A stretch of 57,901 nt of DNA from Bacteroidaceae bacterium. Its GTDB lineage: Bacteria; Bacteroidota; Bacteroidia; Bacteroidales; Bacteroidaceae. The notes below the pieces were generated by a model, which saw only the letters and a list, made by a program, of their open reading frames with translations, was not told where the DNA came from and did not search any database. The stretch spans positions 1 through 57,901 of the forward strand of contig JAFYWH010000136.1 of assembly GCA_017558175.1 (NCBI GenBank), written 5' to 3'. Position 1 is the stretch's first letter, and the number at the start of each line of letters is the position of its first letter. The position numbers and the translations under genes were made by a program. Below, piece by piece: positions 35,526 to 54,714 of this stretch.

Positions 35526-35591
35526 ATGGCAACTGTCGCAAAATTTGCGATAATTCAAAGTGAAGGAAGTAGAACCGTCACCCGGAAACAG
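35526..35591 (+). pseudogene. Short RhuM-family fragment
   Basis: Encodes ATVAKFAIIQSEGSRTVTR, resembling the ATVAKFATVQ.EG.R.V.R motif of RhuM proteins; the rest of the gene is absent. Confidence 0.55.
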
Positions 35592-35715
35592 CGACTCACA
35601 TGTCGCCTTCTTCATCCCGATAGCCCTAAGGCAGTCGGGACATTTTTGTATGTACCCAGCATGTCAAATGTTTTTTTTTCTTTATCTTTGTGTTCATATC
35701 ATCAAGCATAAAGAT

Positions 35716-37632
35716 ATGAAGAAACTATACAGCCTGATTGTACTCCTTGTAGTACTACTCTTTGGGGCATGTAGCGACCCCAAGCATGTTACCGAACCCT
35801 TGCATCGTGCCGAGGCACTGATGAACGAACATCCCGACTCTGCCTTGAACCTGCTGAAAGGCATTGCGCAGACCGAGTTGCAGACTCAGGCACATCATGC
35901 CCGTTATGCCCTGCTCTACAGCCAGGCGCTGGACAAGAACTATATCGACCTTACCAACGACTCACTGATAAACATTGCCGTGGACTACTACAAAGACCGC
36001 GACGATGTAAGAGCCAAGTTCTTCTCCTTTTATTATTTGGGACGCATCTATACTAATGCCAATAACCCTACTCAGGCTACATTGGCCTATATAGAGGCGG
36101 AACAACTGGTAGATGAGTTGGGTGATGACTATGCTGCCGGATTGCTATATAAGCAAATAGGACTCGTCTATTATTCTTATTATGATTTTTCCAAAAGCTT
36201 GCAAGCACACCAGCAAGCCATCGAGCATTTTACCAAAGCGGGTAAACCTATTCACAAAATACAGGCCCAGCTAACCCTTAGTAGTGTCTATAGAAGTCTG
36301 AACGAAGAAGAAAATAGCTACAAGGTCTTACAAAATGCATTAATGGAATCTCATAATCTGAACAATCAAGGTCTTGTTAAATCATGTATATGCAATCTAA
36401 TAGTAGCTTGTATAGACTTGGAGAAGTGGGAAGAAGCCACACAATGGTATCAGGAATATCAGAAGAACAACGGTCGCGACTATCCGTCCATAGCGTTCTA
36501 TGGTTACATAGCCCGACTTCATGCAAAGAATCGGAATTTTAAAGACGCTTTTATGCTCTTGGATGAAATCAAGAAGAAAACTGAAAACCTACAAGATTCC
36601 ATCAACCTATACTATGCCGAATCCCAAGTTCATCAGATGAATGGTTCGTGGGAAGAAGCCTATCGCAGCATGAATAAAAGCGTCAGCCATCAAAATAGAA
36701 TCGTTCGGAAATCCTTGCAACAGCCCGTATTGACCACCCAGAACAACTATTTGAATCAGGAACTGGAATTTAAAGCTTATAAACTCCGTATAGAAAAGAC
36801 ACTACGGACAGTAAGTATTTCCTTAATTTCATTCATTGCTGTAGTTACGGTTTTCTTAATCTGGAAAAAACTCCGTAAGGACTATTTGAACAAACTAAAA
36901 AAACTGGAGATTGAAAACGGACTGCAAATAGAGAAGATACAACTTGAAGCTGAAGAACGGGAACAAAGCCTTCAGTCCATTGTCCGTCTCTTAGAACATA
37001 AATTGAAGGAAGAAAAGTATCTTTCATCACAAAATATGGACAAATTGAGAACGGAACTGGAAGCCACACAACACCATATCAAGGAAAGCCAAAAAGTCCA
37101 GCAAGAGATGGCAAACTATATCAAAGAGCTTTGCCAGCAGAAACAGACACTCAAAGATGAACTGGAAAACCGAACAGTCATCATCAGAGAACTGGAGCAA
37201 GAGAACCGCACTACCCATATCAGCAATAATTTGAAAAGCAAGCTTCTCAAAAGATATTTCACACTGATGGAAGATATGATAACTTTGTCTTCCAGAAAAT
37301 TTAAAAAGGATGAAGACAAACATGAAGCGCTTTCCAAACAATACAAAGAAGCCATAAACAATTTTAGTGGTAACAAGAGTACGGATACTAAATTGGAGAA
37401 GATGGTCAATGAATGCAATGACGATATTATGAAACATCTACGGGAAGAAATAAACCTACCCGATCATACTTATTATCAGTTAGCATGTTATCTATTAGCT
37501 GGATATTCGGTTAACGTCATAGCCTGTGCTTTGGGAGAAACGACAAACACCATCTATAAGAGGAGAGACAAGATTCGTTCCATTATCATGGAATCCGAGG
37601 CTAATCATAAAGATTTATTTTTACAGATATAA
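35716..37632 (+). CDS. TPR-sensor / TM / coiled-coil / LuxR-like HTH one-component regulator
   Basis: Signal with LFGAC lipobox-like motif, TPR helices, TM (VSISLISFIAVVTVFLIW), long coiled coil, C-terminal GYSVNVIACALGETTNTIYKRRDKIR HTH; TATCTTTG -7 box at 35683. Confidence 0.8.
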   Translation: MKKLYSLIVLLVVLLFGACSDPKHVTEPLHRAEALMNEHPDSALNLLKGIAQTELQTQAHHARYALLYSQALDKNYIDLTNDSLINIAVDYYKDRDDVRAKFFSFYYLGRIYTNANNPTQATLAYIEAEQLVDELGDDYAAGLLYKQIGLVYYSYYDFSKSLQAHQQAIEHFTKAGKPIHKIQAQLTLSSVYRSLNEEENSYKVLQNALMESHNLNNQGLVKSCICNLIVACIDLEKWEEATQWYQEYQKNNGRDYPSIAFYGYIARLHAKNRNFKDAFMLLDEIKKKTENLQDSINLYYAESQVHQMNGSWEEAYRSMNKSVSHQNRIVRKSLQQPVLTTQNNYLNQELEFKAYKLRIEKTLRTVSISLISFIAVVTVFLIWKKLRKDYLNKLKKLEIENGLQIEKIQLEAEEREQSLQSIVRLLEHKLKEEKYLSSQNMDKLRTELEATQHHIKESQKVQQEMANYIKELCQQKQTLKDELENRTVIIRELEQENRTTHISNNLKSKLLKRYFTLMEDMITLSSRKFKKDEDKHEALSKQYKEAINNFSGNKSTDTKLEKMVNECNDDIMKHLREEINLPDHTYYQLACYLLAGYSVNVIACALGETTNTIYKRRDKIRSIIMESEANHKDLFLQI

Positions 37633-37647
37633 TTTTACATCATTGAT

Positions 37648-37863
37648 AATCAACAACTTGTATTACCCCCCCCCTAAATAATAATTCGTTACGCATACTG
37701 TATATTACTGAATATCAATAGATTACAAATTGCCCGTGTGTAGGCTAAAGAATATTTTTTAGTCTACACATTAAGTACAGATTATCAATTAGTTAGCAAT
37801 CCGTTTAGGCGAAACAATAATTCGTCTGAACGGATTTAATTTTTCCTTTAATTTATAAATTTG
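37648..37863 (+). promoter_or_regulatory. Complex promoter of the peptide cluster
   Basis: Three WATCAAnnnnTTR sites (37648, 37713, 37783), two long dyads (37737-37770, 37798-37836), a C9 tract and a TAAATTTG -7 box at 37856. Confidence 0.6.
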
Positions 37864-37892
37864 CAAACATGAAAAACATAAAAAACAATATT

Positions 37893-38279
37893 ATGAGAAC
37901 TACAATTTTAATTCTACTATGGGCTTTTATCGATTCATTTTCCGGTTTTGCAAACAGTTATTATGATGAAGATGAAAACAAGACAGACATAATTATAGAA
38001 AAAGGGGAAGGAGATGACACAAACAAACATGCTCGCATTCCCATATATGATCCAATAACTTGTTATTATATGAAAGGAAATATCTATGTCACTACTTTGA
38101 CTGATTTAGGGGAAATCCAGATTAGTATAACCTGTCTGGAAACAGGAAGTTTCTGGAAATCTGTCAACGACTCTAATTCAGGAACAATCTGTGTCCCGAC
38201 TTCATCAGCTAATGGCAACTATATGGTAAGGATTGTTACAGCAAACGGTGATGTCTATTACGGTTATTACAATCTATAA
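37893..38279 (+). CDS. DUF3244-like secreted Ig-fold protein
   Basis: Signal peptide, RIP motif, C-terminal GNYMVRIVTANGDVYYGYYNL; usual partner of TPR-HTH regulators in Bacteroidales; ATG 37893 preferred because ATG 37869 sits at the predicted transcription start. Confidence 0.72.
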   Translation: MRTTILILLWAFIDSFSGFANSYYDEDENKTDIIIEKGEGDDTNKHARIPIYDPITCYYMKGNIYVTTLTDLGEIQISITCLETGSFWKSVNDSNSGTICVPTSSANGNYMVRIVTANGDVYYGYYNL

Positions 38280-38290
38280 ACTCTTCATCC

Positions 38291-40582
38291 ATGAAAATAG
38301 GAATTGTATATTTGGCAACGGGTGCTTACAATAGCTTTTGGAAAGACTTTTATCATACTTGTGAGCAGTATTTCTGTGTGGACGCAGAGAAAGGCTATGA
38401 ACTTTTCACCGATTCACCAGAAAACATGAAGAATATACTATCTGCCAATGTACATATCCGACAGATAGAAGATTTAGGTTGGATAGTCAATACTTCCTAC
38501 AAATCGGAATATATTTTCAGCATCCGTAAAGAACTGGAGGCATACGATTACGTATTCTATATCAATAGTAACTTCCTGTTCACTGCTCCCATTTATGCAG
38601 ACGAAATATTACCCAAAGCCTCCGACAGCTATCTGACGGCCTTATCTTTCGACCATTATTTAAACGTAGATGTCCGGAATTATCCATACGACCGGAATCC
38701 CGATTGTTTGGCATTCATTCACACTGGAGCAGGAAAGCGGTACTATCAAGGTGGCTTCTATGGTGGAAGGACTAAAGAAATGCTTCTTCTGTCGGAGTGG
38801 TGTAAGGCAGCCATCGCACAGGATTTCAACAAGAAAATCATAGCCCGTTTTCATGATGAATCCTATATCAACCGATATTTAATAGACAAGAACCCCAAGG
38901 TCCTGAATGATGAATATGCCTTGCAGCACATTTGGCCCTACCATGGTCCTTACAAGGCTGTCATCAGAAACAAAGAGGAAGTCTTGGGTTCACAGACATT
39001 GGGACAACTGAAAGATGTCTATACAGACACTTCCCTATCCTTCCTTTTGGACGAACATCTATGTTTCCGCCCTGGAGGTATCGTAAACCTATATGGAGGA
39101 TTAGGAAACCAGATGTTCGGTTATGCATTCTGTCTGTATATGCAGAAACAGGATGCCAAACGCCGTTGGTGGATAGATGCCTATGCCTGCATGAAACCTC
39201 ATATTCATAACGGCTATGAACTTAGCAAAGTATTTACCGACATAGATACTACACTAGAAATAGGTGAAGAGAATCGTATCAAAGTAGCACAAGTACAGGA
39301 TAATCACAAAGCCACGATCAAGGAACATCATTTGTCCAAGGTACAATCTTTTACATTATCGGATAAGCCATTGACTATCTATACAGGTTGCTGGCAGTGC
39401 TACCCATACATAGAAGCCTGTGCCGATGAACTTCGTCACCAATTCCAATTTAATGAACAACGGCTCAATGAAAAGTCCAAGCAACTCTTGGACGTAATCA
39501 GAAACCGCTGTTCTGTCAGTGTACATATCCGCCGGGGTGACTATACAAAGAAAAACAATGAATGGCTGTATGGTGGTATTTGTACGATAGATTATTATCA
39601 GGCAGCCATGCAACGGTTGGAAAGTATACTTCCAGAAAAACCAATCTATTTATTCTTCAGCGACGACCCAGCTTGGGTAAAAGAACATTTCAACATACCT
39701 GATTGCGAAATCATTGATTGGAATAAAAAAGAAGAAAGTTGGCAAGATCTTTGCTTAATGGCGGCATGCCGCCACCACATCATCGCCAATAGTAGTTTCA
39801 GTTGGTGGGGAGCTTGGTTGGGGCAACATGAAGGTACCCTAACCATAGCACCGGACGTTTGGTACAATACCACTCATACTCCCGACCTATTGCCGTCTGA
39901 ATGGATAAGAATTCCTATTCCACCCTCATCGGAACTACTCCAACGGCTATGCAATGACTTGATTTTGCGGAGTAGCTATCTGGATTCGTTGGGATTACAA
40001 CAGGGTAAGATGGGAGCAGTATTGTTCTTTTTCCATTATGCACGACATACAGGGAACACTCTTTATGAAAACTATGCCGAAGAATTGTTCGATGAAGTTT
40101 ACAACGATGTAAACAAGGGTGTATCATACGGTTTTATCAATGGTTTATGCGGTATCGGTTGGGCTGTGGAATACCTAGTAAAACATAATTTCATTGAAGG
40201 AGATACGGATGATGCCTTGGAAGAAATAGACCGACAAGTGATGGTTTACGCTCCTACCCGGCTCACCGATTATTCGTTTGCTAATGGATTGGAGGGTATC
40301 GTTTGTTACGTTTTGTCCCGTCTTCTCTCGCCTAGAGCATCAAAAGCTTCTTTACCTTTTGATGAAAGATACCGAAAGGAGTTGTATCTGGCTTGTAAAA
40401 ATATACCAAAAGAAGAACAAACAACTTATATCCGTTCATTAATAGATTTAGTGGAAAAGGGGAAGTGTATCTATTCATTTGATAAAGTTATTGAACAATT
40501 ATTTGAGTTGTCAGAAGATGTTTTCAATATGAAAGGTATGACTTGGGAAACTGGTATAAAAATGATGAAGCGTGTTAACTAA
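38291..40582 (+). CDS. Fusion: GT6 glycosyltransferase + GT11 alpha-1,2-fucosyltransferase + LanC-like domain
   Basis: GT6: KIGIVYLATGAY..FW..F, FTD, NSN, YYQGGFYGG, FHDES. GT11: GGLGNQMF, VHIRRGDY, FSDD, IIANSSFSWWGAWL. LanC-like: GL..GKMG..LFFFHYAR, GLCGIGW..EYL, F.NGLEGI. Confidence 0.85.
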   Translation: MKIGIVYLATGAYNSFWKDFYHTCEQYFCVDAEKGYELFTDSPENMKNILSANVHIRQIEDLGWIVNTSYKSEYIFSIRKELEAYDYVFYINSNFLFTAPIYADEILPKASDSYLTALSFDHYLNVDVRNYPYDRNPDCLAFIHTGAGKRYYQGGFYGGRTKEMLLLSEWCKAAIAQDFNKKIIARFHDESYINRYLIDKNPKVLNDEYALQHIWPYHGPYKAVIRNKEEVLGSQTLGQLKDVYTDTSLSFLLDEHLCFRPGGIVNLYGGLGNQMFGYAFCLYMQKQDAKRRWWIDAYACMKPHIHNGYELSKVFTDIDTTLEIGEENRIKVAQVQDNHKATIKEHHLSKVQSFTLSDKPLTIYTGCWQCYPYIEACADELRHQFQFNEQRLNEKSKQLLDVIRNRCSVSVHIRRGDYTKKNNEWLYGGICTIDYYQAAMQRLESILPEKPIYLFFSDDPAWVKEHFNIPDCEIIDWNKKEESWQDLCLMAACRHHIIANSSFSWWGAWLGQHEGTLTIAPDVWYNTTHTPDLLPSEWIRIPIPPSSELLQRLCNDLILRSSYLDSLGLQQGKMGAVLFFFHYARHTGNTLYENYAEELFDEVYNDVNKGVSYGFINGLCGIGWAVEYLVKHNFIEGDTDDALEEIDRQVMVYAPTRLTDYSFANGLEGIVCYVLSRLLSPRASKASLPFDERYRKELYLACKNIPKEEQTTYIRSLIDLVEKGKCIYSFDKVIEQLFELSEDVFNMKGMTWETGIKMMKRVN

Positions 40583-40611
40583 TATAATATTCACTTTTAT
40601 TTTAGAGACTT

Positions 40612-40851
40612 ATGAAACTTAAAAAGATTATACTACATGATGGTAATGAAGTTTTGCAACAGAATGAAATGAAGATGATTAAAGGAGGTGATGGAGAAAC
40701 AAAAAGTTGTAATAGTTCGTCCTGTACTGGCTCTTGCAGAGAACTTGTTCCTATATGGAATATTTACAAAGATGGTGTTTGTCAATGGAATTCTATATAT
40801 GATAGTGAAAAGAATGAATATTTAGTCTGTGAATGTAAATTGAAATTATGA
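40612..40851 (+). CDS. Double-glycine leader peptide precursor 1 (GG-Bacteroidales/TIGR04149-like), 6 Cys
   Basis: 26-aa leader ending EMKMIKGG; 53-aa core with Cx4Cx3C...GxC...CxC. Confidence 0.88.
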   Translation: MKLKKIILHDGNEVLQQNEMKMIKGGDGETKSCNSSSCTGSCRELVPIWNIYKDGVCQWNSIYDSEKNEYLVCECKLKL

Positions 40852-40969
40852 GAGCTATTTTTACCATAATGATTGTGGTTAATTACATCAAAGTCTTGAA
40901 TGAATCACAGATGTGAAATTCCAGGAGAAGAGGGCAACCCAATTCTATTTATAAGTTGAAATGATAAAT

Positions 40970-42211
40970 ATGAAAAAGACAATTTTCATCGGAGCATTAG
41001 CACTAGCATTGGAGGCATGTTCAATGGCTTCGCAGAAGAACGAAGCACAAGGACAGATAGACATTCAGTTCGCATTCGAGAACCCAACGGAACTGAAAGT
41101 TTCGCACTTGGGCAAGAACATCCGATATGTTCCATTGGAAACGATCGACTCATCGCTAATAGGTGAAATGTATGGCATTAAGTTATTGGACGACAAGATT
41201 TTGGTGACCAGTGCTGCCAATTGCCTTCTTTTTGATAAGCGGACTGGAAATTTTTTGTGCAAGGTTAGCGGTAAAGGGCAAGGTCCTAAAGAATATTTAA
41301 ACAGTATTTCGTATGTTCATCCACAGACGGGTGACATTTATTTCAATCGTACCCCATGGAGGATGATTAGATTCAACCAACAAGGCAAGTATTTAGACGA
41401 TTTGCAATTACCTTTCAAGTGGGACTACGGATGTTTCCTGACCTTTAAGGGTAATGAAGCCATTGTACATCGTACTCTTGGAATGAATCAAATCCATCGC
41501 TTCAACATGACAGGAGCAGCAATAGATTCCATCGCATTGCCTTCCAACCGGGAATGGGATTATGGAGACATCAAGACACCTATCATAGCAGAAGGTCCTG
41601 CCAGCTCTTTGATGGGGGCAGGAATGTTTACAACTAATGGGTTTTACATTATTCAATATAAAACAGAAAAAAGGCAAGATCTTCTTACCGTACACTACCC
41701 TTCCATTTACCTCTATAAGGACGAAATGCGTTTCCATGAAGCCTATAACGATACCATTTATCGTATAGACGGAAATACACTTGTTCCACAATGGGTATTC
41801 CACACAGGCGAATGTCATACACCGAGAGAACTGTATGGCAATGTAGAAGAAAGCAAGAAGCGTATGGTAGTAACCTACATAGCCGAAACGGAAGACCTAC
41901 TTTTCTTTGAATGCGCCAAAGAATGGTTTACTCAAAAGAAACCGGATCTCCGCTATGGCATCTATCAAAAGAAAAATGGTATAACCATGATAGGACAAAC
42001 TTACGAACGTATCACGGATGACTTGACTCAGTTCATTCCTTTCTATCCTACGACCCATTCTGTAAAAGGAGAGTTTGCTGGAACATTAAGTATCGAACAA
42101 ATTCAAAAATGGTTAGAAGAGCATCCCGATGTAAAACTGGAAGGTGCATTGGCTCCGCTTAAAAGCTTGGCAGATGATGCAAATCCAGTTGTGGTGATTG
42201 TGGAACCTTAA
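40970..42211 (+). CDS. Six-bladed beta-propeller lipoprotein 1 (DUF4934/DUF5128-like)
   Basis: Lipobox LEAC; IRYVPLET...LI, GKGQGPKEY, NDTIY and C-terminal DDANPVV. Confidence 0.82.
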   Translation: MKKTIFIGALALALEACSMASQKNEAQGQIDIQFAFENPTELKVSHLGKNIRYVPLETIDSSLIGEMYGIKLLDDKILVTSAANCLLFDKRTGNFLCKVSGKGQGPKEYLNSISYVHPQTGDIYFNRTPWRMIRFNQQGKYLDDLQLPFKWDYGCFLTFKGNEAIVHRTLGMNQIHRFNMTGAAIDSIALPSNREWDYGDIKTPIIAEGPASSLMGAGMFTTNGFYIIQYKTEKRQDLLTVHYPSIYLYKDEMRFHEAYNDTIYRIDGNTLVPQWVFHTGECHTPRELYGNVEESKKRMVVTYIAETEDLLFFECAKEWFTQKKPDLRYGIYQKKNGITMIGQTYERITDDLTQFIPFYPTTHSVKGEFAGTLSIEQIQKWLEEHPDVKLEGALAPLKSLADDANPVVVIVEP

Positions 42212-42267
42212 AAAATTAAAATGATGAACCGTATTAAATAAATTATTCACTTTTAACTTTAAAAATT

Positions 42268-42519
42268 ATGAAGCAATTGAAGAAAATGGCTCTTAAAGAA
42301 GCCGAAATTTTGACAGACAAGGAAAAGAAAATGGTATTAGGTGGTAATCTTGAAGGCGATACATGTAATGTAAGTACAACATGTGACGATGGTACTGTAT
42401 TGGCTATTTATGACTGTAAAGGTGTGTGTAGTTCACTTCCTGGTCAGTTTGTAGAATGTGTAGGACAGTCAAAGACTTTAACAAAATCATGTGGAGGAAC
42501 TGGTAATGAGGTACAATAA
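42268..42519 (+). CDS. Double-glycine leader peptide precursor 2, 6 Cys
   Basis: 26-aa leader ending EKKMVLGG; 57-aa core with 6 Cys. Confidence 0.88.
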   Translation: MKQLKKMALKEAEILTDKEKKMVLGGNLEGDTCNVSTTCDDGTVLAIYDCKGVCSSLPGQFVECVGQSKTLTKSCGGTGNEVQ

Positions 42520-43678
42520 AATACAGTTGATTACGGTATTAATATCTTTCGTGGTTACAGCATGTAACCACGAAAAAAAAATATTGTCCGACCTTATTTA
42601 TTTGAACTGTGAGAATGCAGAAAATCGGGAGGCTCCTAAACTTTCTTTGTTATTGAAGGACATACGTTATGTCGCTTTGGAAACCAAGGACACTTGTCTG
42701 TTGAACAGACCGACCAATATCACCTTGACGGACAAGTACATCGTGATGGATGGCGGACACGAGACGGAATGCTTCGTGTTCGACAAGCAGAATGGCAAAT
42801 ACGTCCGCACTATCGGCATGCGCGAGGATCCTGGACCTACAGGATATTACATGTGTACGTATCCAATCTATGTTCAAGGCGATGAAATGTATTTGAAGGT
42901 AGATTGGCTTGGCAATAAGTATAAGGTTTTTTCCTTGGATAATGGAAGCTTGTTGAGAACCATCGATGAAAAGACAGAAGGACAAAGATGGCCCAGCGAT
43001 TACCTTTATCCGCTGAACGATTCCACCATGTTGCAATATGCTAACAACAGATATGGAAACCGCAAGTATGGCTTGCAAGTATGTACTTGGTCGGGGAACA
43101 TCCTGAAGAAATTCCCTTCGCTCAACAATTTTAAGAGGAACGAAGCTTTGGATTATACTATCGCTTACCACAATGAAATGAATTTCTACAGATATAACGA
43201 GCAAGTGTATTTCCACGAGTTCACATCAGACACTATCTTCCGTTTGAACGAGTCTTTGGACGTAGAACCAGTCTATGTAGTGGGTAAGGGGGATAAGATT
43301 CCTGTGCCGGAATTGCGGAACGAAGTAGATCAAGAGACAAAGTACAAGAAACTTATTAAATTCGATTACATAATGGAAACCGACCATCACTTGTTGATGA
43401 TGGGTAATCGATGGAATGAAGTAGCCTACATTTACGACAAGCAAACTGGTGAGACCAGCCGTCTGGAAGAAGAAAATGCAACCTTTTTTAACGATTTGAA
43501 CGGATTCCTACCTTTTTGGCCTATTGGGCGTGGACGTGATGGAGCAGAGAACGAGGTATGGGCATTGATTCAACCGGACCAGTATATGGAAGGTGTAAAA
43601 GCAACGGGTGTAAATCCATTAGGATTTGATTTAAAGTTTGATGATAATCCGGTAATTGCAATAGGAACGTTAAAATAA
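42506..43678 (+). CDS. Six-bladed beta-propeller lipoprotein 2
   Basis: Lipobox VTAC; IRYVALET..CLL, FD...GKYVRTIG..PGP..Y, SDTIF and DDNPVI; ATG 42506 overlaps precursor 2 by 14 nt. Confidence 0.82.
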   Translation: MRYNKIQLITVLISFVVTACNHEKKILSDLIYLNCENAENREAPKLSLLLKDIRYVALETKDTCLLNRPTNITLTDKYIVMDGGHETECFVFDKQNGKYVRTIGMREDPGPTGYYMCTYPIYVQGDEMYLKVDWLGNKYKVFSLDNGSLLRTIDEKTEGQRWPSDYLYPLNDSTMLQYANNRYGNRKYGLQVCTWSGNILKKFPSLNNFKRNEALDYTIAYHNEMNFYRYNEQVYFHEFTSDTIFRLNESLDVEPVYVVGKGDKIPVPELRNEVDQETKYKKLIKFDYIMETDHHLLMMGNRWNEVAYIYDKQTGETSRLEEENATFFNDLNGFLPFWPIGRGRDGAENEVWALIQPDQYMEGVKATGVNPLGFDLKFDDNPVIAIGTLK

Positions 43679-43722
43679 AGTAAATGATAATCGTCAAACA
43701 TTAATGTTAAAATATAGGTTTT

Positions 43723-44925
43723 ATGAAACACTACTACCTGTTCAATAATGCCAGCCGGGCAGCACAATATGGTATCGGTACTTACCTCAACCAATTATGT
43801 AATGGATTGAAGGAAGAAGTTTCGGTAAGTATCATAGCTATTAATTCGGAGGAAGAGGAAGTAAAAAGGACAGAAGAGGACGGAGTTTGTACCATTCACA
43901 TCCCCGAAATCTCCTATAAGAATGCACCAGAGAACTTCGAACGCTATTACCGCAATCTGGTCTATCTGCTGAAAACGTATATCGACAAGAATGAAGAAGC
44001 AGTATTTGTGTTGAACTACCTATATATGACACCACTGGTAAAATTGCTTCATGAGCACTTCCCTAATTGCAAGGTAGCAACCGTTGTGCATTATTTGAAC
44101 TGGTGTTTCGCATTGAACGGTAACGTAAGCAAGTTCCATCAATTGCTAGAAAATAATCATAGGGACGAAAAGGGACAAGCCCTTTACAAAGAATACCAAA
44201 ACGACAGAAAACTGCTTCAAGAAGTAGACAAGGTTGTCTGCTTATCGCAATCTACCCGTAACTTACTGATTGCAGACTATCAATTGAAGCTAGAAAAGAC
44301 GACCGTCATTTACAATGGACTGAAAGACGAGGGAATAATGACAATCACATCGGAAGAACGGAAAAAACTGAAACAATCCTTGTCCTTTGATGCAGAGGAT
44401 TCGATAATATTGTTTGTCGGTCGGTTGGATAGTATTAAGGGAGTAGATTTCCTGATCAAAGCCTTCCGAAAAGTATTGGAAATATGTCCACATGCCCGTC
44501 TGTTATTGGCTGGTGATGGAGATTACAACGCCTATTTGAAAGAATGTAACGGCATCCGTACTCGGATTACTTTTACAGGTAAAGTAAAAAAAGAAGAACT
44601 GTACCAATATTATCAAATAGCCGATGTAGGTGTAATGCCATCCTTCCATGAGCAATGCAGCTATGTAGGCATTGAGATGATGATGCATGGTGTACCTTTA
44701 ATCGGAACCAATAGTACCGGATTGGGTGAAATGACAATGGATGAACTAAAGGTAGAATTAGATGAAAATAAAGAAGAACAACTTTCAGTAGAACTGCTTG
44801 CAAACAAGATTATAAAAGTTCTGACTTCACAACAAACAATCTGGAGAGAAGCAAGTCGCAAACGATATGAACGTTGTTATACACAAGAAAACATGAAAAA
44901 AAAATACTTGAATCTATTTACTTGA
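43723..44925 (+). CDS. GT4 glycosyltransferase, GG-Bacteroidales peptide system type (TIGR04157-like)
   Basis: N-terminal SRAAQYGIGTY signature; ILFVGRL..IKG; PSFHEQCSYVGIEMM.HG (EX7E). Confidence 0.88.
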   Translation: MKHYYLFNNASRAAQYGIGTYLNQLCNGLKEEVSVSIIAINSEEEEVKRTEEDGVCTIHIPEISYKNAPENFERYYRNLVYLLKTYIDKNEEAVFVLNYLYMTPLVKLLHEHFPNCKVATVVHYLNWCFALNGNVSKFHQLLENNHRDEKGQALYKEYQNDRKLLQEVDKVVCLSQSTRNLLIADYQLKLEKTTVIYNGLKDEGIMTITSEERKKLKQSLSFDAEDSIILFVGRLDSIKGVDFLIKAFRKVLEICPHARLLLAGDGDYNAYLKECNGIRTRITFTGKVKKEELYQYYQIADVGVMPSFHEQCSYVGIEMMMHGVPLIGTNSTGLGEMTMDELKVELDENKEEQLSVELLANKIIKVLTSQQTIWREASRKRYERCYTQENMKKKYLNLFT

Positions 44926-44938
44926 GACATAGAGAATC

Positions 44939-46489
44939 ATGAACAATATTTTGACATCATTTCTGAAAGCACTACATGTAAAATACACTTCGGCTTATGC
45001 GGAGAAACTCTATGAAGAACATCCGCATAAGTATAATCTGTATGGCCTCTCCAAAATGCTGGAAGAATATGGGATAGCTAATGCCGGCGTGCGTATAAAC
45101 GACAAAAACATACGATCATTGAAAACACCATTCATCGCGCACATCGGCAATGATTTTGTGGTAGTAAACAAAGTGACGGACAAGCAAGTCAGCTATCATT
45201 GGAGAGATAAAGAAATCAATGTAACCGAAGATCAATTCAAGAACTTGTGGAGCGGTGTGGTACTCATTGCCGAAACGGATGAAAATTCCATCGAACCGGA
45301 TTATCTGCAACATAGAAAACACTATCTTTTGAATCTTTGTCAAAACATTCTACTGGCAGCGATTCCCTTAATTGCCTTGTTGTGGATATACAGCAAGCAA
45401 GAGTTCCATATCGCTAATGCCTTTTTATTTCTACTTTATGCAATCGGTGCATTGACTAGTTTACTGCTGGTGCAGAAACAGATTTATGCACACGGACAAT
45501 ATGCTGATAAAATCTGTTCGTTGTTCAAGCAGAAGGATTGCAACAATGTATTGGAATCCGATGCAGCAAAAGTATTCGGTTGGGTTAGTTGGAGTGAAAT
45601 AGGGCTTGGCTATTTTCTTTCCAACTTATTGTTAATGGCAGTATGTCCTGCATTGATTCCTTATTTAATCCTCATCAACCTTCTTGCTCTACCTTATACG
45701 ATATGGAGTGTATGGTATCAGTATAAGGTAGTGAAGCAATGGTGTATGCTTTGCATGGTGGTACAAGGAATTTTGTGGTTGTCTGCGCTGACCGGATGCA
45801 TAGGAGGAATGATACAACTGCCTGGTTTTAATCTCATGGATATATGCAAAGTAGGAATGATTTATATATTCCCTACATTGGCGGTAAACAAAATATCTTC
45901 CTGGTTGGCTTCAGAGAAAAAAACGAGACATATCACACAAGAATTAAACAGTCTGAAGACGACAGAAGAAGTTTTCAAGGCATTGTTGGAGAAACAACCT
46001 TATCATTCCGTTGATGTTACGGATTCATGCATTCTGTTCGGAAATCCAGAAGCTCCGCTTCGTATCAGCATTCTTACCAATCCTCATTGTGAGCCATGTG
46101 CAAAAATGCATACTCGGGTTGAAAAACTGTTGCAAAAGGCTGGTGACAAACTATGTATACAATACATTTTTTCAGCATTCAACAATGACCTATTAAAAAG
46201 CAATCGTTTCTTGATTGCAGCCTATCAGAATGAATCGAGGGAAAAGGCAGAGGCTATTTATCATCGATGGTATGAAAAAGAGAAGTACCATGCGGTTTCC
46301 TATATAGAAAGTTTTGGTTATGATATTACAACCGAAACGGTAACAGAAGAATTGAAACGGCACAACGATTGGAAAGAAACAAACAAATTGTCCGCTACAC
46401 CTACTATTCTTGTGAATGGTTATCTACTTCCAGATCATTATCAGATAGAAGATATGGCAGAGTTTGTGGATTCTGCTATCAATAATTAA
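44939..46489 (+). CDS. Inactive C39-like domain + VKOR + thioredoxin/DsbA-like fusion
   Basis: C39-like N-terminus without the QxxxxDCG motif; VKOR loop CSLFKQKDCNNVL and WCMLC; Trx NPHCEPC and TPTILVNG. Confidence 0.88.
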   Translation: MNNILTSFLKALHVKYTSAYAEKLYEEHPHKYNLYGLSKMLEEYGIANAGVRINDKNIRSLKTPFIAHIGNDFVVVNKVTDKQVSYHWRDKEINVTEDQFKNLWSGVVLIAETDENSIEPDYLQHRKHYLLNLCQNILLAAIPLIALLWIYSKQEFHIANAFLFLLYAIGALTSLLLVQKQIYAHGQYADKICSLFKQKDCNNVLESDAAKVFGWVSWSEIGLGYFLSNLLLMAVCPALIPYLILINLLALPYTIWSVWYQYKVVKQWCMLCMVVQGILWLSALTGCIGGMIQLPGFNLMDICKVGMIYIFPTLAVNKISSWLASEKKTRHITQELNSLKTTEEVFKALLEKQPYHSVDVTDSCILFGNPEAPLRISILTNPHCEPCAKMHTRVEKLLQKAGDKLCIQYIFSAFNNDLLKSNRFLIAAYQNESREKAEAIYHRWYEKEKYHAVSYIESFGYDITTETVTEELKRHNDWKETNKLSATPTILVNGYLLPDHYQIEDMAEFVDSAINN

Positions 46490-46517
46490 CTATTTTATTC
46501 ATTTAAATTCTAACTTT

Positions 46518-46727
46518 ATGAAACAGAAAAAAATTGTATTAAAAGAAGGGATGAATCAGCTTCTTGATTCTGAATTGAAAGCCTTGAAAGGTGGTAGTAA
46601 AGTAATGTATACATACTGCCATTGTTACGGTCTAACAGAAGGATTGGAAGCTACAGGTTGCGACCAATGTGAAAAATTATGTAAAAATGCCGGTGGTGTC
46701 CAAAACTGTAATTATGTGATTGCATAA
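46518..46727 (+). CDS. Double-glycine leader peptide precursor 3, 6 Cys
   Basis: 26-aa leader ending ELKALKGG; 43-aa core with CxC...CxxCxxxC...C. Confidence 0.88.
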   Translation: MKQKKIVLKEGMNQLLDSELKALKGGSKVMYTYCHCYGLTEGLEATGCDQCEKLCKNAGGVQNCNYVIA

Positions 46728-46754
46728 AGCTCGCATTTTTAGTATGAGTAAAAC

Positions 46755-46782
46755 TAGTCGGTGTGTATTTGCACACCGACTA
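46755..46782 (+). other. Strong intergenic hairpin without U-tract
   Basis: TAGTCGGTGTG-TATTTG-CACACCGACTA, 11-bp perfect stem. Confidence 0.7.
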
Positions 46783-46798
46783 AATAGCATGTATAAAT

Positions 46799-48106
46799 AT
46801 GATTAATAAAGTTAAATTCTTATATTGTATAATTGCAGTCTTTGTAGGACTCGGATGCTCCGATACTAAAAAAACAGGAAATGTTGAAAATGTACAACAA
46901 GCTGTGGCAATAGAACAAACTACCCTAAAAGTAGAAATACCAAGCGAACCTAAAAAGCAGAACGAACCCAAACATAGTAAGGACAATACTCCTCAAAAAG
47001 AAGTCCAAAAGAAAAAGAACCCTGACGGCTACTATAACATTCCTTATGATAAGAAAGCACGCAATATCAAAGTGGAGGATTTGTTCAAAAACGTCAGATT
47101 TGTACGTCTAGAAACCAACGAGAACTGTCTGGTGAATGAAAATAGGAATAAAATTGAATGTAAAAATGGAATAATATACATGCAGAATGACCGTCCGTCT
47201 ATTACTGAATTCCTATTATTCAATAAAGAAGGGAAATATTTAAGAAGCATCTGCAAACAAGGGGAAGGGCCAGAAGAGTATAGTAATGCTATGAATATAG
47301 CGATTAATAGTAAGGGAGACATTTCTGTGGCAGATTGTACGGGAGCTACTGGACGAATTGTAACTTATAGTTCGGACGGGAATTTCATATCGCACATTAA
47401 ATTGCCGGGGATTGCCTCCGAAACCCCTTTAACCGACCTACTTGACATTACTTATTTGAATGACAGTGTCCTTCTAATTAAAGGTGACCGTGGATGGGTA
47501 ACAAAGAATCAGTATCAAACTTTCAATATATATACTAAAAAGGTGATTAGGAATATGCATTTGGTAAAGCGTCGTCCTTACCACATGTACTTTCCAGAGG
47601 GATTTGTCACCTATCAAAGCAAAGCAATAATAGCAAGCTATCAAAGCAATCAAATATTAGAAGCCACGGAAGATACCGTCAGAGTGAAATACACGTTCAA
47701 CATTGGTAACAAAATGCCTCCAGCAGGTTTTTGGGAAGAACAACCGTCCTATGAAGTTACCAAAAAAGAAGAGGTTTCGAACGAATATATTGGCCATATA
47801 CCATTCTTTGCAGAGAATGACCGATATATGTTCATCAGTTTTATGGGAAGCTTGGGTGTAGGAAATTTGCAAAGCCTGGCTTTGGTGGAAAAGGCGACAG
47901 GCAAGTCTAGAACGTTCAAAAGAATTGTATTGGCTGATAATATGATGATTGAACCTATAGATTTTTTCTGGCAAAGCAATGGAGAAATAATCATTCCAAT
48001 TTGGCCTCATGAGATTATAGAAAGCGAAAACAAAGAATTTCTATCCCAATTCCCTGACTTAAAAGAAGATGACAATCCTATATTGTTAATCGGAGAATTA
48101 ATATAA
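46799..48106 (+). CDS. Six-bladed beta-propeller lipoprotein 3
   Basis: Lipobox GLGC, K/Q/P-rich tether, VRFVRLETNENCLV, GKYLRSI.KQGEGPEEY and EDDNPIL. Confidence 0.82.
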   Translation: MINKVKFLYCIIAVFVGLGCSDTKKTGNVENVQQAVAIEQTTLKVEIPSEPKKQNEPKHSKDNTPQKEVQKKKNPDGYYNIPYDKKARNIKVEDLFKNVRFVRLETNENCLVNENRNKIECKNGIIYMQNDRPSITEFLLFNKEGKYLRSICKQGEGPEEYSNAMNIAINSKGDISVADCTGATGRIVTYSSDGNFISHIKLPGIASETPLTDLLDITYLNDSVLLIKGDRGWVTKNQYQTFNIYTKKVIRNMHLVKRRPYHMYFPEGFVTYQSKAIIASYQSNQILEATEDTVRVKYTFNIGNKMPPAGFWEEQPSYEVTKKEEVSNEYIGHIPFFAENDRYMFISFMGSLGVGNLQSLALVEKATGKSRTFKRIVLADNMMIEPIDFFWQSNGEIIIPIWPHEIIESENKEFLSQFPDLKEDDNPILLIGELI

Positions 48107-48125: not shown

Positions 48126-50333
48126 ATGAAACGCTTCCCCCACTACCTCCAGCACGATGCGATGGACTGCGGTCCTACCTGCTTGCGGATGATTGCCAAA
48201 TACTACGGCAAGAACTATTCGCTACAGACACTGCGTGAACGCTCTTTCATTACCCGTGAAGGAGTGTCGATGCTCGGCATCAGCGATGCAGCGGAAAGTA
48301 TCGGGTTTCGCACCTTGGGCGTGCGTATCTCCTTAAAGCAACTACAGGAGGATATGCCCCTGCCCTGCATCTTGCACTGGAACCAGAACCACTTTGTGGT
48401 GTTGCATGACATCCGCAAGCGACGGGACGGGTATCGCTATTACATTGCCGACCCGGATTCGCAACTCATTGCCTATACCGAAACGGAGATGCGCAAGTGT
48501 TGGTTAGTGACCAAGACCGACGGCGAGGAGAAGGGGGCGGCGTTGGCATTGGAACCGTCGCCGCAGTTCTACGAGAAGAAGGACGAGACGGAGAAACATA
48601 CGGGTAAGGGATTGTTGTTCTTTGCCAAATACCTTTTCCCTTACCGGAAAGAGTTCGTGCAGTTGCTGTTGGGAATGCTGGTGGGTACATTGCTGCAACT
48701 AGTATTTCCGTTCCTTACGCAGTCGTTGGTGGATGTGGGGATTCGTGACGGAAATCTTTCGTTCATCACCTTGATATTGGTGGCTCAACTGGTGGTGTCG
48801 GTTTCGCAACTGTCAGTGGAGTTCATCCGCAGCTGGATATTGTTGCATGTGAACACACGTATCAACATTTCACTGATTTCGGACTTCCTGATCAAGCTGA
48901 TGAAACTACCTCTCCGTTTCTTCGACACGAAGATGGTGGGCGACATCATGCAGCGCATCGGCGACCATAACCGCATCGAGTCGTTCCTCACTGGCTCTTC
49001 CGTCAGTACGCTGTTCTCGTTCGTGAACTTCTTCATCTTCGGGGCGATATTGGCGTACTACAATCCGCTGATACTGGGTATCTTCTTGTTTGGGAACACG
49101 CTGTATGTGGCGTGGGTAATGGTATTCATGAAGTACCGCCGGGAGTTGGATATCCGTCGCTTCGCACAGGCATCAAGTGAGCAAAGCAGCCTGATACAAT
49201 TAGTCACGGGGATGCAGGAAATCAAGCTGAACAACTGTGAGCGGCAGAAGCGTTGGCAGTGGGAACGCATACAGGTGAAGCTGTTCCGCATCAGCGTGAA
49301 GGGAACGGCACTGGGGCAGGTACAGCAGGTAGGATCGGTATTCTTCAACCAGACTACGAACATCCTTATCTCGTTCATCGCCGCCAAGTCGGTGGTGGAA
49401 GGGCAGATGACCTTGGGGATGATGATGTCGCTCACCTACATCATCGGACAACTGAATGCACCGGTAAGTGCGTTCATCGGCTTCGCACGTCAGCTGCAGG
49501 ACGCGAAAATCAGTCTGGAGCGTCTGAACGAGATTCACGGACGGGAAGACGAGGAACAGCAGATAGAAAGCAAGCTGGCCGTACTGCCCGAACGGAAGGA
49601 CATCACGGTGAACCACCTTTCGTTCAGCTATGACGGAGCAGACCGCGACTATGTGCTGGATGACGTGTGTCTGGAGATACCGGAAAAGGAAATTACCGCC
49701 ATTGTGGGGGCAAGCGGTAGCGGAAAGACGACGCTACTGAAACTGATATTGGGATTCTATGAACCGAACAAGGGGGACATCCGCATGGGGGATACACCCA
49801 TCGGCCTCATCAATCCGCACTTATGGCGGGCGAAGAGTGGGGCGGTGATGCAGGACGGTTTCATCTTTTCGGATACGATAGCAAACAACATTGCCGTAAA
49901 CACGGACCAAATAGACATTGAGCGGTTGCGTCATGCCGTGACGGTAGCGAACATCCGGGACTTCATCGACTCGCTGCCTTTGGGCTACAATACAAAAATC
50001 GGTATGGAGGGAAACGGCATCAGTCAAGGTCAGCGACAACGGTTGCTCATTGCCAGGGCGGTGTATAAGAATCCGGAGTTCCTGTTTTTCGATGAGGCGA
50101 CAAACGCACTGGATGCCAACAACGAGAAGGAAATCATGGAGCATCTGAACGAGTTCTACCGAGGAAAGACGGTGGTGGTCGTGGCACATCGCCTGAGTAC
50201 GGTGAAGCATGCAGACAAGATTGTGGTGCTGGACAAGGGAAAGGTGGCGGAAGAAGGTACGCATCAGGAATTGACCGAACGGAAGGGATTGTATTACAAA
50301 TTGGTGAAGAACCAGTTGGAGTTGGGGAATTGA
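48126..50333 (+). CDS. Peptidase C39-containing ABC transporter (PCAT)
   Basis: QHDAMDCGPTC, HWNQNHFVV, TM domain, GASGSGKT, ISQGQRQR, FFDEATNALD and AHRLST. Confidence 0.96.
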   Translation: MKRFPHYLQHDAMDCGPTCLRMIAKYYGKNYSLQTLRERSFITREGVSMLGISDAAESIGFRTLGVRISLKQLQEDMPLPCILHWNQNHFVVLHDIRKRRDGYRYYIADPDSQLIAYTETEMRKCWLVTKTDGEEKGAALALEPSPQFYEKKDETEKHTGKGLLFFAKYLFPYRKEFVQLLLGMLVGTLLQLVFPFLTQSLVDVGIRDGNLSFITLILVAQLVVSVSQLSVEFIRSWILLHVNTRINISLISDFLIKLMKLPLRFFDTKMVGDIMQRIGDHNRIESFLTGSSVSTLFSFVNFFIFGAILAYYNPLILGIFLFGNTLYVAWVMVFMKYRRELDIRRFAQASSEQSSLIQLVTGMQEIKLNNCERQKRWQWERIQVKLFRISVKGTALGQVQQVGSVFFNQTTNILISFIAAKSVVEGQMTLGMMMSLTYIIGQLNAPVSAFIGFARQLQDAKISLERLNEIHGREDEEQQIESKLAVLPERKDITVNHLSFSYDGADRDYVLDDVCLEIPEKEITAIVGASGSGKTTLLKLILGFYEPNKGDIRMGDTPIGLINPHLWRAKSGAVMQDGFIFSDTIANNIAVNTDQIDIERLRHAVTVANIRDFIDSLPLGYNTKIGMEGNGISQGQRQRLLIARAVYKNPEFLFFDEATNALDANNEKEIMEHLNEFYRGKTVVVVAHRLSTVKHADKIVVLDKGKVAEEGTHQELTERKGLYYKLVKNQLELGN

Positions 50334-50334
50334 T

Positions 50335-51288
50335 ATGGAACAACATTATAAAGACATCGAGCTACGGAGCGAAGAGGTGCAGGAGGTGATGAACCGGGTC
50401 CCTCCCGCCATTCTGCGTTACGGCATTGGGATATTGACAACCATCGTTATGGTACTGCTCATAGGGAGTGCGCTGTTCAGTTATCCCGAATCGGTTCAGG
50501 TGGAGGTAACACTGTCTCCACATAATCCTCCGGCCTACGTCAAGTGCACAGGCGGTGGAAAACTGGAAAGGCTGTATGTGGCCAACGGGCAAGAAGTGAA
50601 GAAGGGCGATATGCTGGCAGTGATGGAAAACGTGGCCAATACGGAAGATATTCTTCTGTTGAGGACGCGCCTGTCCGACTGGCAGGAAAGAGGGGCAAGA
50701 CCGGAACAGTTAGGTATGATTTTCTTCCATCGTTTGCCAAGGTTGGGTAGTGTGCAAGGAACGTATGCCTCCTGCCTCTCGTCATGGAACAACTATCTGC
50801 AACATGCCCATGAGAACCGCATTCACGAAACGGAACTGAACAACGCCGTGGCACAACTGATGACTGCCCTCGGTGAATGGGAAACGGCCTGTTTGCCAAC
50901 CGCTCCCGTGGACGGAAAAGTGGCCTTCATGCAAATCTGGAAGAAGGGGCAGTATGTGAATGCCGGAGAAACCTTGTTTGTGATAGTGCCCGACGGGGAA
51001 TCGGAGTTCACAGGAAAGGCTTTGCTCCCCATGCAGGGTTCGGGCAAGGTACGGACGAGACAGCGGGTCGTCGTCCGGCTGTCTGGATTTCCCGAACAGG
51101 AATACGGTCGGATAGAGGGGGAAGTGGCTTCCATCTCGCCTGTTCCTGATGAGGAAGGCAACTATGTGGTGGAAATCCGGCTTACCCGTATGTCCGTCAA
51201 GCAACCGCCCGTCCTGAAAGTGATGAGCGGAACGGCGGAAATCATCGTCCGCGAACAGAGTTTACTGAAAAGAATCTTTAACCATTAA
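50335..51288 (+). CDS. HlyD family membrane fusion protein
   Basis: RSEEVQEV, one TM, V.NGQEVKKGD..A lipoyl half, APVDGKV, FPEQEYG. Confidence 0.88.
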   Translation: MEQHYKDIELRSEEVQEVMNRVPPAILRYGIGILTTIVMVLLIGSALFSYPESVQVEVTLSPHNPPAYVKCTGGGKLERLYVANGQEVKKGDMLAVMENVANTEDILLLRTRLSDWQERGARPEQLGMIFFHRLPRLGSVQGTYASCLSSWNNYLQHAHENRIHETELNNAVAQLMTALGEWETACLPTAPVDGKVAFMQIWKKGQYVNAGETLFVIVPDGESEFTGKALLPMQGSGKVRTRQRVVVRLSGFPEQEYGRIEGEVASISPVPDEEGNYVVEIRLTRMSVKQPPVLKVMSGTAEIIVREQSLLKRIFNH

Positions 51289-53970: not shown

Positions 53971-54069
53971 ATGTAGGGATTCATGTAAAGAAACAAGGAC
54001 TCTACATTTTCTCTACATGGATAAAGCATTGATATTCAGTAAACATGTAAAGATGTAGAGATGTAGAAA
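53967..54069. repeat. ATGTAG/CTACAT iteron block, right arm
   Basis: ATGTAGGG, CATGTAAAG, TCTACAT x2, then CATGTAAAGATGTAGAGATGTAGA. Confidence 0.75.
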
Positions 54070-54090
54070 GAAAAATAAATAAAGAAGCGC

Positions 54091-54714
54091 ATGGCAAAAT
54101 ATATCAAACAAGAAGTGCCCGACATGCAGAAAACGGGCGAACAGAAAGCCTTTTACAGGCTGAAGATAGAACACAATGTGGATTTTCAGGAGTTTGTCGA
54201 GAAACTATGCTCGCACCATTCGGGCATCAGCCGTGGAGAGGCTTTGCGAGTACTGGTCAGTGCTTCGGAAGTACTGGCCAAACTGCTGGGCGAAGGCTAT
54301 TCGGTGACATTGGACGATTGGGGTACCTTCAAGGCAACCATCGGGCTAGAGAAAGGCAAGGAAATGGACACCATAGACGGAAGCGAGAGCAAACGAAATG
54401 CGCGCAGCCTTTGCCTGAACGGGGTAAGCTTTCTGGCCGACAAGAAATTGGTGCAGCAGGCTAAGCGACATTGCAAACTGGAGCGTGCCGGCATTGTCCG
54501 TATACATCGTTCACCATATGATAAAGAGGAACGTTTGCAGAAAGCCCTTGACTACTTAGAGAAGAACAAAGTTTTGAAGGTCGGCCAATACATGAAACTT
54601 ACCGGACTGGCACATACCACAGCGGCCTGCGAACTCCGTGCCTTCAGCCAGGATGATTCGTCGGGCATCGGTTCGGTAGGACGCGGTTCGGCAGTGGTGT
54701 ATGTGAAAAAGTAA
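54091..54714 (+). CDS. Bacteroidales HU-like DNA-binding protein with C-terminal winged helix
   Basis: SRGE...VL......L.EGYSVTLDDWGTF HU-like fold; C-terminal Y..LTGL..TTA..EL. Confidence 0.8.
   Translation: MAKYIKQEVPDMQKTGEQKAFYRLKIEHNVDFQEFVEKLCSHHSGISRGEALRVLVSASEVLAKLLGEGYSVTLDDWGTFKATIGLEKGKEMDTIDGSESKRNARSLCLNGVSFLADKKLVQQAKRHCKLERAGIVRIHRSPYDKEERLQKALDYLEKNKVLKVGQYMKLTGLAHTTAACELRAFSQDDSSGIGSVGRGSAVVYVKK

Follow-up and report, generated by a model that had tools for sequence, protein, structure and literature searches.

What does a protein that joins two glycosyltransferases of blood-group type to a LanC-like domain do at the head of a peptide-export cluster? The gene in question lies in a stretch of 57,901 nucleotides (contig JAFYWH010000136.1 of assembly GCA_017558175.1, from a Bacteroidaceae bacterium; the whole stretch is hereafter the window). 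It is a single open reading frame (ORF) of 763 amino acids (aa) at 38291-40582 on the plus strand, with an ATG start and no internal stop, and encodes domains of glycosyltransferase families 6 and 11 (GT6 and GT11) followed by a helical domain that we call half-LanC. An earlier note on this DNA, made from the sequence alone, had proposed that the protein builds an ABO-like epitope on a ribosomal peptide. Our analysis points to a related pathway, to which we give somewhat less than an even chance: a GT4 enzyme of the cluster would prime Ser/Thr residues of disulfide-rich peptides, and the fusion would add fucose and alpha-galactose, with half-LanC as an adaptor, before export. From the observed domains, residues, gene context and spread we infer every catalytic step, the donor, the acceptor and the docking.

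The fusion gene and its glycosyltransferase domains

The fusion is a real gene and not an assembly artefact, because full-length relatives occur in many other assemblies and contigs of two other studies run across the domain junctions. One such contig (X6 record 26) covers 38774-40063, aligned as two pieces, and another (X4 record 17) covers 38862-39955, reaching just 33 bases beyond the second junction; an RNA run (X10) also gave contigs within the gene, one with zero differences, which as contigs cannot show transcription. A protein search returned 236 matches, and among the 120 listed, dozens span 85-100% of the query; the named carriers of relatives are Bacteroides fragilis and B. congonensis (both cultured), B. 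hominis and Proteiniphilum. All three domains exceeded the curated Pfam cut-offs (GT6 at aa 2-224, E 8.5e-27; GT11, PF01531, at aa 265-539, E 9.1e-29; LANC_like at aa 567-677, E 1.7e-7, the last covering profile positions 5-116 of 350 only). A five-model structure prediction of the full fusion was confident over the whole length (pLDDT 90.2, pTM 0.82), and a fold search with that model returned GT6 matches only. The uninterrupted three-domain ORF described in the earlier note is thus borne out by profile-based domain calls, its architecture recurs in many assemblies, and the possibility raised there that the fusion lacks read support is answered by the bridging contigs and the relatives elsewhere.

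The GT6 domain aligns with BoGT6a, the A-antigen synthase of Bacteroides ovatus (PDB 4AYJ, 4CJB), with E 8.3e-38 and 35% identity, and its model matches 4cjb with a TM score of 0.90 over the target length and a root mean square deviation (rmsd) of 2.1. BoGT6a residues were mapped onto the fusion through pairwise alignment, with residue roles taken from PMC3516806 and PMC3961637 (all PMC articles cited here were used in excerpt). The NSN and HDES motifs named in the earlier note are both there: N92-S-N94 aligns with N95-A-N97 of BoGT6a and H188-D-E-S with H190-D-E192-S. The fusion keeps T10 and Y13 (the UDP-binding Thr10 and Tyr13), N92-S-N94 (Asn95), D189 (Asp191), E190 (Glu192) and K228 (Lys231), the donor-side exception being Arg73, which is K71. 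With PF03414, a BoGT6a-like GT-A fold, the NxN motif, the catalytic Glu and Lys231, the domain has what is expected of a metal-independent bacterial GT6; its score against NF041524 Gltr_6 is 213.6 bits, below the cut-off of 250.

The likeness to BoGT6a does not extend to the product. At the acceptor positions His122 has become F120, Gly124 has become H122 and Trp189 has become F187, and Ala155 is replaced by Q153, so that the fusion has neither His122 nor Trp189 nor a small residue at position 155. His122 is an acceptor residue common to BoGT6a, GTA and GTB, and Trp189 stacks on the acceptor (PMC3516806, PMC3961637). Ile228, which leaves room for the 2'-fucose, is matched by I225, a position set by its offset from K228. 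Judged by these residues, the domain would work as a GT6, with donor and catalytic residues kept, yet falls outside the sequence criteria for an A or B synthase. The position equivalent to 155 is Met (Met266) in GTB and His (His280) in alpha3GT, both of which use UDP-Gal (PMC3516806, PMC4202792); by this analogy Gal is a likelier donor than GalNAc for a GT6 with Gln155. The A antigen is therefore an unlikely product on these residues, and a true B antigen an uncertain one.

These changes are shared widely. In a GT6 tree of 130 domains (187 matches, 170 of them distinct, thinned at 90% identity; quick tree method), the fusion belongs to a 64-row clade (SH-aLRT 100). The clade conserves N95 and E192 in 64/64 rows and K231 in 58/64, has Phe or Tyr at the His122 position in all 64 (His is kept in 60 of the 66 other GT6s) and Gln at position 155 in 63; Trp189 is kept in 27/64. 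A Thr134-to-Pro change was considered as diagnostic of the clade and rejected, as it is present in 35/66 outside GT6s.

The GT11 domain, placed by the earlier note at about aa 262-540 with intact motifs, holds up: besides the Pfam call it contains GGLGNQ and HIRRGD, which we take to be the family motifs GxLGNQ and HxRRxD. A GT11 is fused in 57/64 clade rows, and the motifs are intact in 49/57; the HxRRxD-type motif is absent in the remaining eight, one of them truncated. Five clade members join GT6 to half-LanC without GT11, so a GT6 of this clade can lack a fucosylating partner within its own chain. The GT11 family also includes an alpha-1,3-fucosyltransferase (PMC4202792).

Half-LanC and the link to peptide export

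The C-terminal domain is a unit of about 200 residues (219 aa here), half of the roughly 400 residues of a full LanC barrel, and also exists as a stand-alone protein with homologs of about 200-250 aa. As the earlier note had observed, the zinc-binding motifs are missing: aa 545-763 contain no WCxG or CHG motif, no Cys or His column of the domain alignment is conserved at 90%, leaving no Cys-Cys-His zinc triad, and the invariant columns are Gly, Leu, Ile, Asp, Tyr and Arg. VIA fold comparison placed LanC cyclases and LanCL proteins (NisC, MadC, LanCL1, CuvL, LicM2) at the top, with Z 9.5-11.1 and rmsd 3.4-4.5, scores below 13 that for a helical domain may reflect a common arrangement; the top Foldseek rows were likewise all LanC family, none reaching E 0.001. 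A sequence search of the PDB gave no match for the half-LanC or the GT11 domain. Unlike those cyclases, half-LanC is half as long, lacks zinc ligands and stands in a cluster without a dehydratase.

Its company is glycosyltransferases. Half-LanC is present in 53/301 genomes of the family, and we inspected 20 regions from 19 genomes, chosen among strong matches on longer contigs. All 20 contain a gene for a peptide, a C39 peptidase-containing ABC exporter (PCAT), a C39-VKOR protein or a radical S-adenosylmethionine (rSAM) enzyme, with peptides in 12, GT4 in 15, C39-VKOR in 13 and propellers in 2. The 28 ORFs with half-LanC comprise 15 short stand-alone copies, 13 of which lie directly upstream of a TIGR04157-like GT4, two longer stand-alone copies, which precede GT7C-like or GT2 genes, and 11 fusions; in the 10 fusions scanned the partner is GT2 (6), GT4 (1) or DUF707 (3), presumably also a glycosyltransferase. 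The triple fusion itself adjoins GT4 in loci L108 and L109. Half-LanC is thus supported as a glycosyltransferase companion, and it is likely a non-catalytic adaptor.

The earlier note had assigned it the docking of a peptide or protein. Cofolding half-LanC with precursor 2 of the window gave a score of 0.41 against 0.13 for the best control, with contact agreement between runs of at least 60% and a partner pLDDT of at least 57. The score mark was reached by 116/157 solved and 2/215 mismatched pairs; with scores of 0.60 or less, however, just 18 of the solved pairs reached it, along with the two mismatched ones, and the modelled support for precursor docking is therefore weak. A conserved acidic loop of half-LanC and the lysine-rich precursor leaders would fit docking, and a role as GT4 partner fits the gene order equally well. 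Of the docking claim, then, context favours the companionship with glycosyltransferases, and the binding of a precursor is weakly indicated.

The link to a peptide system, also claimed in the earlier note, is strengthened by comparing GT6 loci. Eighteen clade loci were fetched, and 16 were used after the short L101 and L106 were left out; the outside set was 34 non-clade bacterial GT6 loci of at least 10 kb, from which L142, a clade member, was excluded. A peptide-pathway gene is present in 12/16 clade loci and in 0/34 outside loci, both sets including near-duplicate strains so that the counts are not independent. Half-LanC, peptide, true PCAT and propeller genes occur in none of the 34, and GT11 in 33; eight apparent PCATs near outside GT6s were rejected as ordinary ABC transporters lacking the C39 portion. 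By rows, half-LanC is found in 51/64 of the clade and 0/66 of the others, in a sample enriched by the full-length query. Propellers stand in 10/16 clade loci, and the closest relatives share the window's three glycosyltransferase domains.

The fusion is rare among species representatives, in 1/108 genus genomes and 1/401 family genomes (five other family genomes have a stand-alone GT6), and an order-wide search of 400 genomes found the full triple fusion in none besides this one. A viral scan found 13 distant GT6 loci (24-39% identity), none placed in the fusion clade among those in the tree, and a plasmid search found two matches of stand-alone type. Variant architectures (P0017, P0046, P0048, P0053, P0064) include GT6-GT11-GT2-LanC (1214 aa), GT2 followed by GT6-GT11, GT6-GT11 with GT7C, and GT6-LanC without GT11. 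The relatives L110 and L116 carry rSAM genes, and in the lineage that includes L100, L105 and L107 a DDE transposase gene (L100:8918-9970) lies directly upstream of the fusion.

The proposed pathway and its rivals

In the pathway that we propose, half-LanC would hold the lysine-rich leader, the neighboring TIGR04157 GT4 or both. The GT4 would attach a first, alpha-linked sugar to Ser/Thr of the precursor in the cytoplasm; Ser/Thr is favored because the six Cys of each core would be spent on three disulfides. GT11 would add fucose and the metal-independent GT6 an alpha-1,3-galactose, the PCAT would cleave and export, and the VKOR fusion would form the disulfides. The product of this cluster type would be at most a trisaccharide, blood-group-B-like in make-up and probably not a canonical blood-group antigen. 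Also in favor of this pathway, clusters of the kind hold UDP-galactopyranose mutase, epimerase, GT10, GT32 and GT7C-like genes.

Several findings weigh against this pathway. The caveat of the earlier note that GT11 normally needs beta-Gal stands, as the cluster has no candidate beta-galactosyltransferase. Neither gmd nor Fkp nor galE has a match over the cut-off in this assembly, which is 86% complete, whereas gmd is over the cut-off in 14/20 relatives and present in 8/12 genomes of the same genus. L100-L107 are one lineage and not independent loci. Four clade loci lack a peptide-pathway gene. Two of them (L111, L112) are short, but L113 (20.7 kb) and L114 (13.8 kb) are long; L142, closely related to L113, does encode a peptide with six Cys. 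Finally, the nearest outside GT6s (the L118 group, L265 and L267) have Trp or Phe at the His122 position and lie beside GT11 in lipopolysaccharide (LPS)-core or Wzx loci.

That last point bears on where the enzymes came from. His122 is already lost in GT6s of LPS-core and Wzx loci, so we rejected the idea that the pocket change is an adaptation to peptides; to judge from the sequences, the GT6+GT11 pair most likely derives from a surface-glycan locus with its acceptor pocket already altered. It also gives some ground for an unlikely alternative in which the fusion modifies LPS, capsule or a different lipid-linked glycan of the cell surface, perhaps to mask a receptor for the cluster's own peptides or for phages, receptor masking having precedent among toxin producers of the Bacteroidales. 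The GT11 of the fusion is 38% identical to that of the LPS-type locus L118, and L113 and L114 are without visible peptide genes. This alternative has to contend with a window cluster in which Pfam and NCBIfam find no flippase, polymerase or initiating transferase (nor any rSAM or pseudo-rSAM, dehydratase or GT2), with the absence of half-LanC from all 34 polysaccharide-type GT6 loci compared, and with the replacement by GT11 of the C-terminal membrane-binding tail that bacterial GT6s have (PMC3516806).

A propeller gene follows each peptide gene in the window, and we weighed whether the acceptors are the cluster's exported proteins, the propeller lipoproteins or whatever replaces them, which would receive their glycans ahead of export. 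There is precedent in the cytoplasmic glycosylation of adhesins by retaining GT4 enzymes that have non-catalytic partners, a TIGR04157 homolog gave weak SdgA/GtfA matches, and propellers recur among the clade loci; across the half-LanC regions, however, they are largely replaced by beta-barrel or thioredoxin-like proteins, while the peptides, GT4 and C39-VKOR persist. Propellers are the weaker acceptor candidate, and this reading is very unlikely.

The missing gmd and Fkp, together with the fusion's rarity and a GC content of 0.383 over 36000-48100 compared with 0.458 genome-wide, would also suit a recently imported cassette that does nothing in this host because GDP-fucose is lacking, or one with a domain in decay. 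Loss of the HxRRxD-type motif in some clade members and damaged genes in L105 (split within half-LanC) and L107 (cut after GT6) point the same way. We hold this to be the least probable of the readings considered: the assembly is incomplete, this copy has all its motifs, and full-length members are retained at identities as low as about 36%.

A canonical A or B epitope on a peptide, as first proposed, we regard as distinctly unlikely. GT6 and GT11 do travel together, both in the clade and outside it, and I225 would leave room for the fucose. In four relatives (L113:13060-15714, L115:7284-9944, L116:10566-13214 and L142:2799-5453) a GT2-GT10 fusion stands next to the GT6-GT11 fusion and GT7C-like domains lie close by, a combination that resembles A/B-Lewis synthesis. 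The window is less favorable: His122 is absent throughout the clade, Trp189 is Phe in the fusion, Gln155 disfavors GalNAc by the analogy drawn above, the cluster offers no beta-Gal transferase, and probes for GT7C, GT10 and GT32 found no match genome-wide. The clade members without GT11 and the alpha-1,3-fucosyltransferase within the GT11 family count against it as well.

The canonical pair does occur in another family of the order. In genome G676 (contig C2, about 1192700-1209750; L269:10692-18139, L266:846-10745), a LanC-like/peptide/PCAT cluster ends in GT6 and GT11. It holds a GT7C/GT2-like gene, a 345-aa LanC-like gene, C39-VKOR, three double-glycine peptides, thioredoxin-like proteins, PCAT and HlyD; a stand-alone GT6 and a GT11 come about 80 bases further along on the same strand and are followed by a convergent, unrelated gene. 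A promoter and terminator scan of this junction found no terminator and nothing notable above chance. The G676 GT6, outside the fusion clade in the tree, has His122, Trp189 and a GTB-like Met at position 155. Among the clusters considered, this one is the strongest candidate for making a true B-type epitope on a peptide. As a single case it could have arisen by chance, yet it is the best sign of blood-group-type chemistry in such clusters. The ABO-like epitope of the earlier note thus retains its tie to peptide clusters and gains a canonical enzyme pair elsewhere, and for the window itself the acceptor residues of the GT6 argue against it.

A broader reading, possible if rather unlikely, is that of a widespread, modular Bacteroidales system that would build oligosaccharides on exported ribosomal peptides with half-LanC as leader adaptor and swappable glycosyltransferases, having recruited GT6+GT11 at least twice and, at some loci, a Lewis-type GT10. 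If it is true, gut bacteria would secrete peptides with B-, alpha-Gal- or Lewis-like host epitopes. As separate observations, half-LanC/GT4 peptide clusters in L222, L223 and L227 (genomes G088, G212 and G142) include UDP-galactopyranose mutase, which suggests galactofuranose on peptide; L222 further contains an epimerase-family gene as well as a DUF707-LanC fusion, and L227 a DUF4422 gene.

Known systems and the surroundings of the fusion

The cluster appears to be of a kind already known. Bacteroidales TIGR04149/TIGR04148/TIGR04150/TIGR04157 clusters share its double-glycine precursors, PCAT, TIGR04157 GT4 and motif-less LanC next to carbohydrate-active enzymes (CAZymes) (PMC10352776, PMC4573289); unlike them, the window lacks the TIGR04148 rSAM/TIGR04150 pseudo-rSAM pair, and the 86% complete genome has no pseudo-rSAM match and one rSAM match at 24%. 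TIGR04149 clusters have been described (PMC4573289), and the excerpts of PMC10352776 and PMC4573289 give no characterized product for this type. Motif-less LanC near CAZymes is abundant in Bacteroidales clusters for ribosomally synthesized and posttranslationally modified peptides (RiPPs) and has been read as endoglucanase-like (PMC10352776); "fucosyl" and "propeller" occur 0 times in the main text of that article, and its excerpted passages mention no GT6, GT11 or half-barrel adaptor. Unclassified LanC-like proteins may mark an uncharacterized RiPP class (PMC7268733).

Glycocins and other glycosylated RiPPs (SunS-type GT2; cacaoidin) resemble the cluster in their double-glycine leader, disulfides, PCAT export and cluster-encoded glycosyltransferase; the known cases bear a single sugar or two, attached by GT2 or similar enzymes, and the window, unlike SunS-type systems, has no GT2 peptide glycosyltransferase. 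To our knowledge no glycosylated RiPP involves GT6, GT11 or a LanC-derived adaptor, and the literature, mostly open-access and consulted in excerpt, gave no report of a GT6-GT11-half-LanC fusion. The GT6+GT11 pairing itself is familiar from O-antigen and capsule loci (Escherichia coli O86 WbnI/WbwK; PMC4202792), but there the acceptors are lipid-linked polysaccharides and no half-LanC or peptide genes are nearby. The pairing includes simple two-domain GT6-GT11 fusions (about 520-540 aa) that retain His122. BoGT6a, too, sits in a surface-glycan locus and has a membrane tail in place of GT11 and half-LanC.

Bacterial GT6s are known from surface polysaccharide synthesis, and here GT6+GT11 occurs in peptide-export clusters of two separate lineages. 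Were they to act on peptides, RiPPs with branched, fucosylated, host-like glycans would be secreted in the gut, the presumed site of priming of anti-A, anti-B and anti-alpha-Gal antibodies (PMC3516806). For the motif-less LanC proteins, abundant in Bacteroidales and left unexplained in PMC10352776, the pathway supplies a testable role, and tests are possible now because strains of B. fragilis and B. congonensis with the fusion are in culture. A GT6 with an altered acceptor pocket is of interest to glycan synthesis in any case.

The fusion opens a one-strand cluster of three double-glycine precursor genes, each followed by a propeller lipoprotein gene, behind genes for a TPR protein and a DUF3244 protein (Table 1). 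Homologs of the TPR protein stand before the related clusters L113, L115 and L215.

Table 1. Positions in the window of the fusion, its domains and the neighboring genes
Feature	Positions	Strand	Basis and remarks
TPR protein, likely cluster regulator	35560..37632	+	Weak BT3442-family match, under cut-off
DUF3244 protein	37869..38279	+	Pfam
GT6-GT11-half-LanC fusion	38291..40582	+	763 aa; no evident signal peptide (by eye); Pfam, predicted structure
GT6 domain, aa 1-230	38291..38980	+	Pfam, BoGT6a alignment, structure match
GT11 fucosyltransferase-family domain, aa 262-541	39074..39913	+	Pfam; motifs intact
Half-LanC helical domain, aa 545-763	39923..40579	+	Ten helices; no conserved Cys/His; conserved acidic loop
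Precursor 1	40612..40851	+	26-aa double-glycine leader, 53-aa core, 6 Cys, 9 Ser/Thr; TIGR04149 24.4 bits (cut-off 25)
Six-bladed propeller (DUF5128/DUF4934), likely lipoprotein	40961..42211	+	Pfam
Precursor 2	42268..42519	+	Double-glycine leader, 57-aa core, 6 Cys, 12 Ser/Thr; 0 NCBIfam matches
Six-bladed propeller 2, likely lipoprotein	42491..43678	+	ATG at 42506 likelier start
GT4 of TIGR04157, candidate priming transferase	43723..44925	+	476.5 bits, cut-off 400
C39-like/VKOR/thioredoxin fusion, likely disulfide formation	44939..46489	+	Pfam
Precursor 3	46518..46727	+	Double-glycine leader, 43-aa core, 6 Cys, 4 Ser/Thr; TIGR04149 18.9 bits, under cut-off
Six-bladed propeller 3, likely lipoprotein	46799..48106	+	Pfam
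C39 peptidase-containing ABC exporter (PCAT)	48126..50333	+	Pfam, NCBIfam
HlyD-type membrane fusion protein	50335..51288	+	Pfam, NCBIfam

The exporter genes differ from the rest of the cluster in composition, PCAT and HlyD (48126-51288) having a GC content of 0.525 compared with 0.383 for the biosynthetic block. The exporter of L110 is 93% identical to that of the window, while its GT6 is only 49% identical; exporters and cargo therefore move separately. Right after the cluster, at 51886-54714, lie a VapE/BT4734-like gene and an HU-like gene, of a kind often found at mobile or variable regions of Bacteroides. In loci L218, L219, L220 and L226-L232 a protein of approximately 950 aa, an outer-membrane beta-barrel by Pfam in L218 and L219, replaces the propeller after each peptide, and in G676 thioredoxin-like proteins take the propeller position. 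Elsewhere in this genome there are ten further DUF5128 propeller matches, on contigs C5, C19, C42, C43, C51, C74, C114, C125 and C142.

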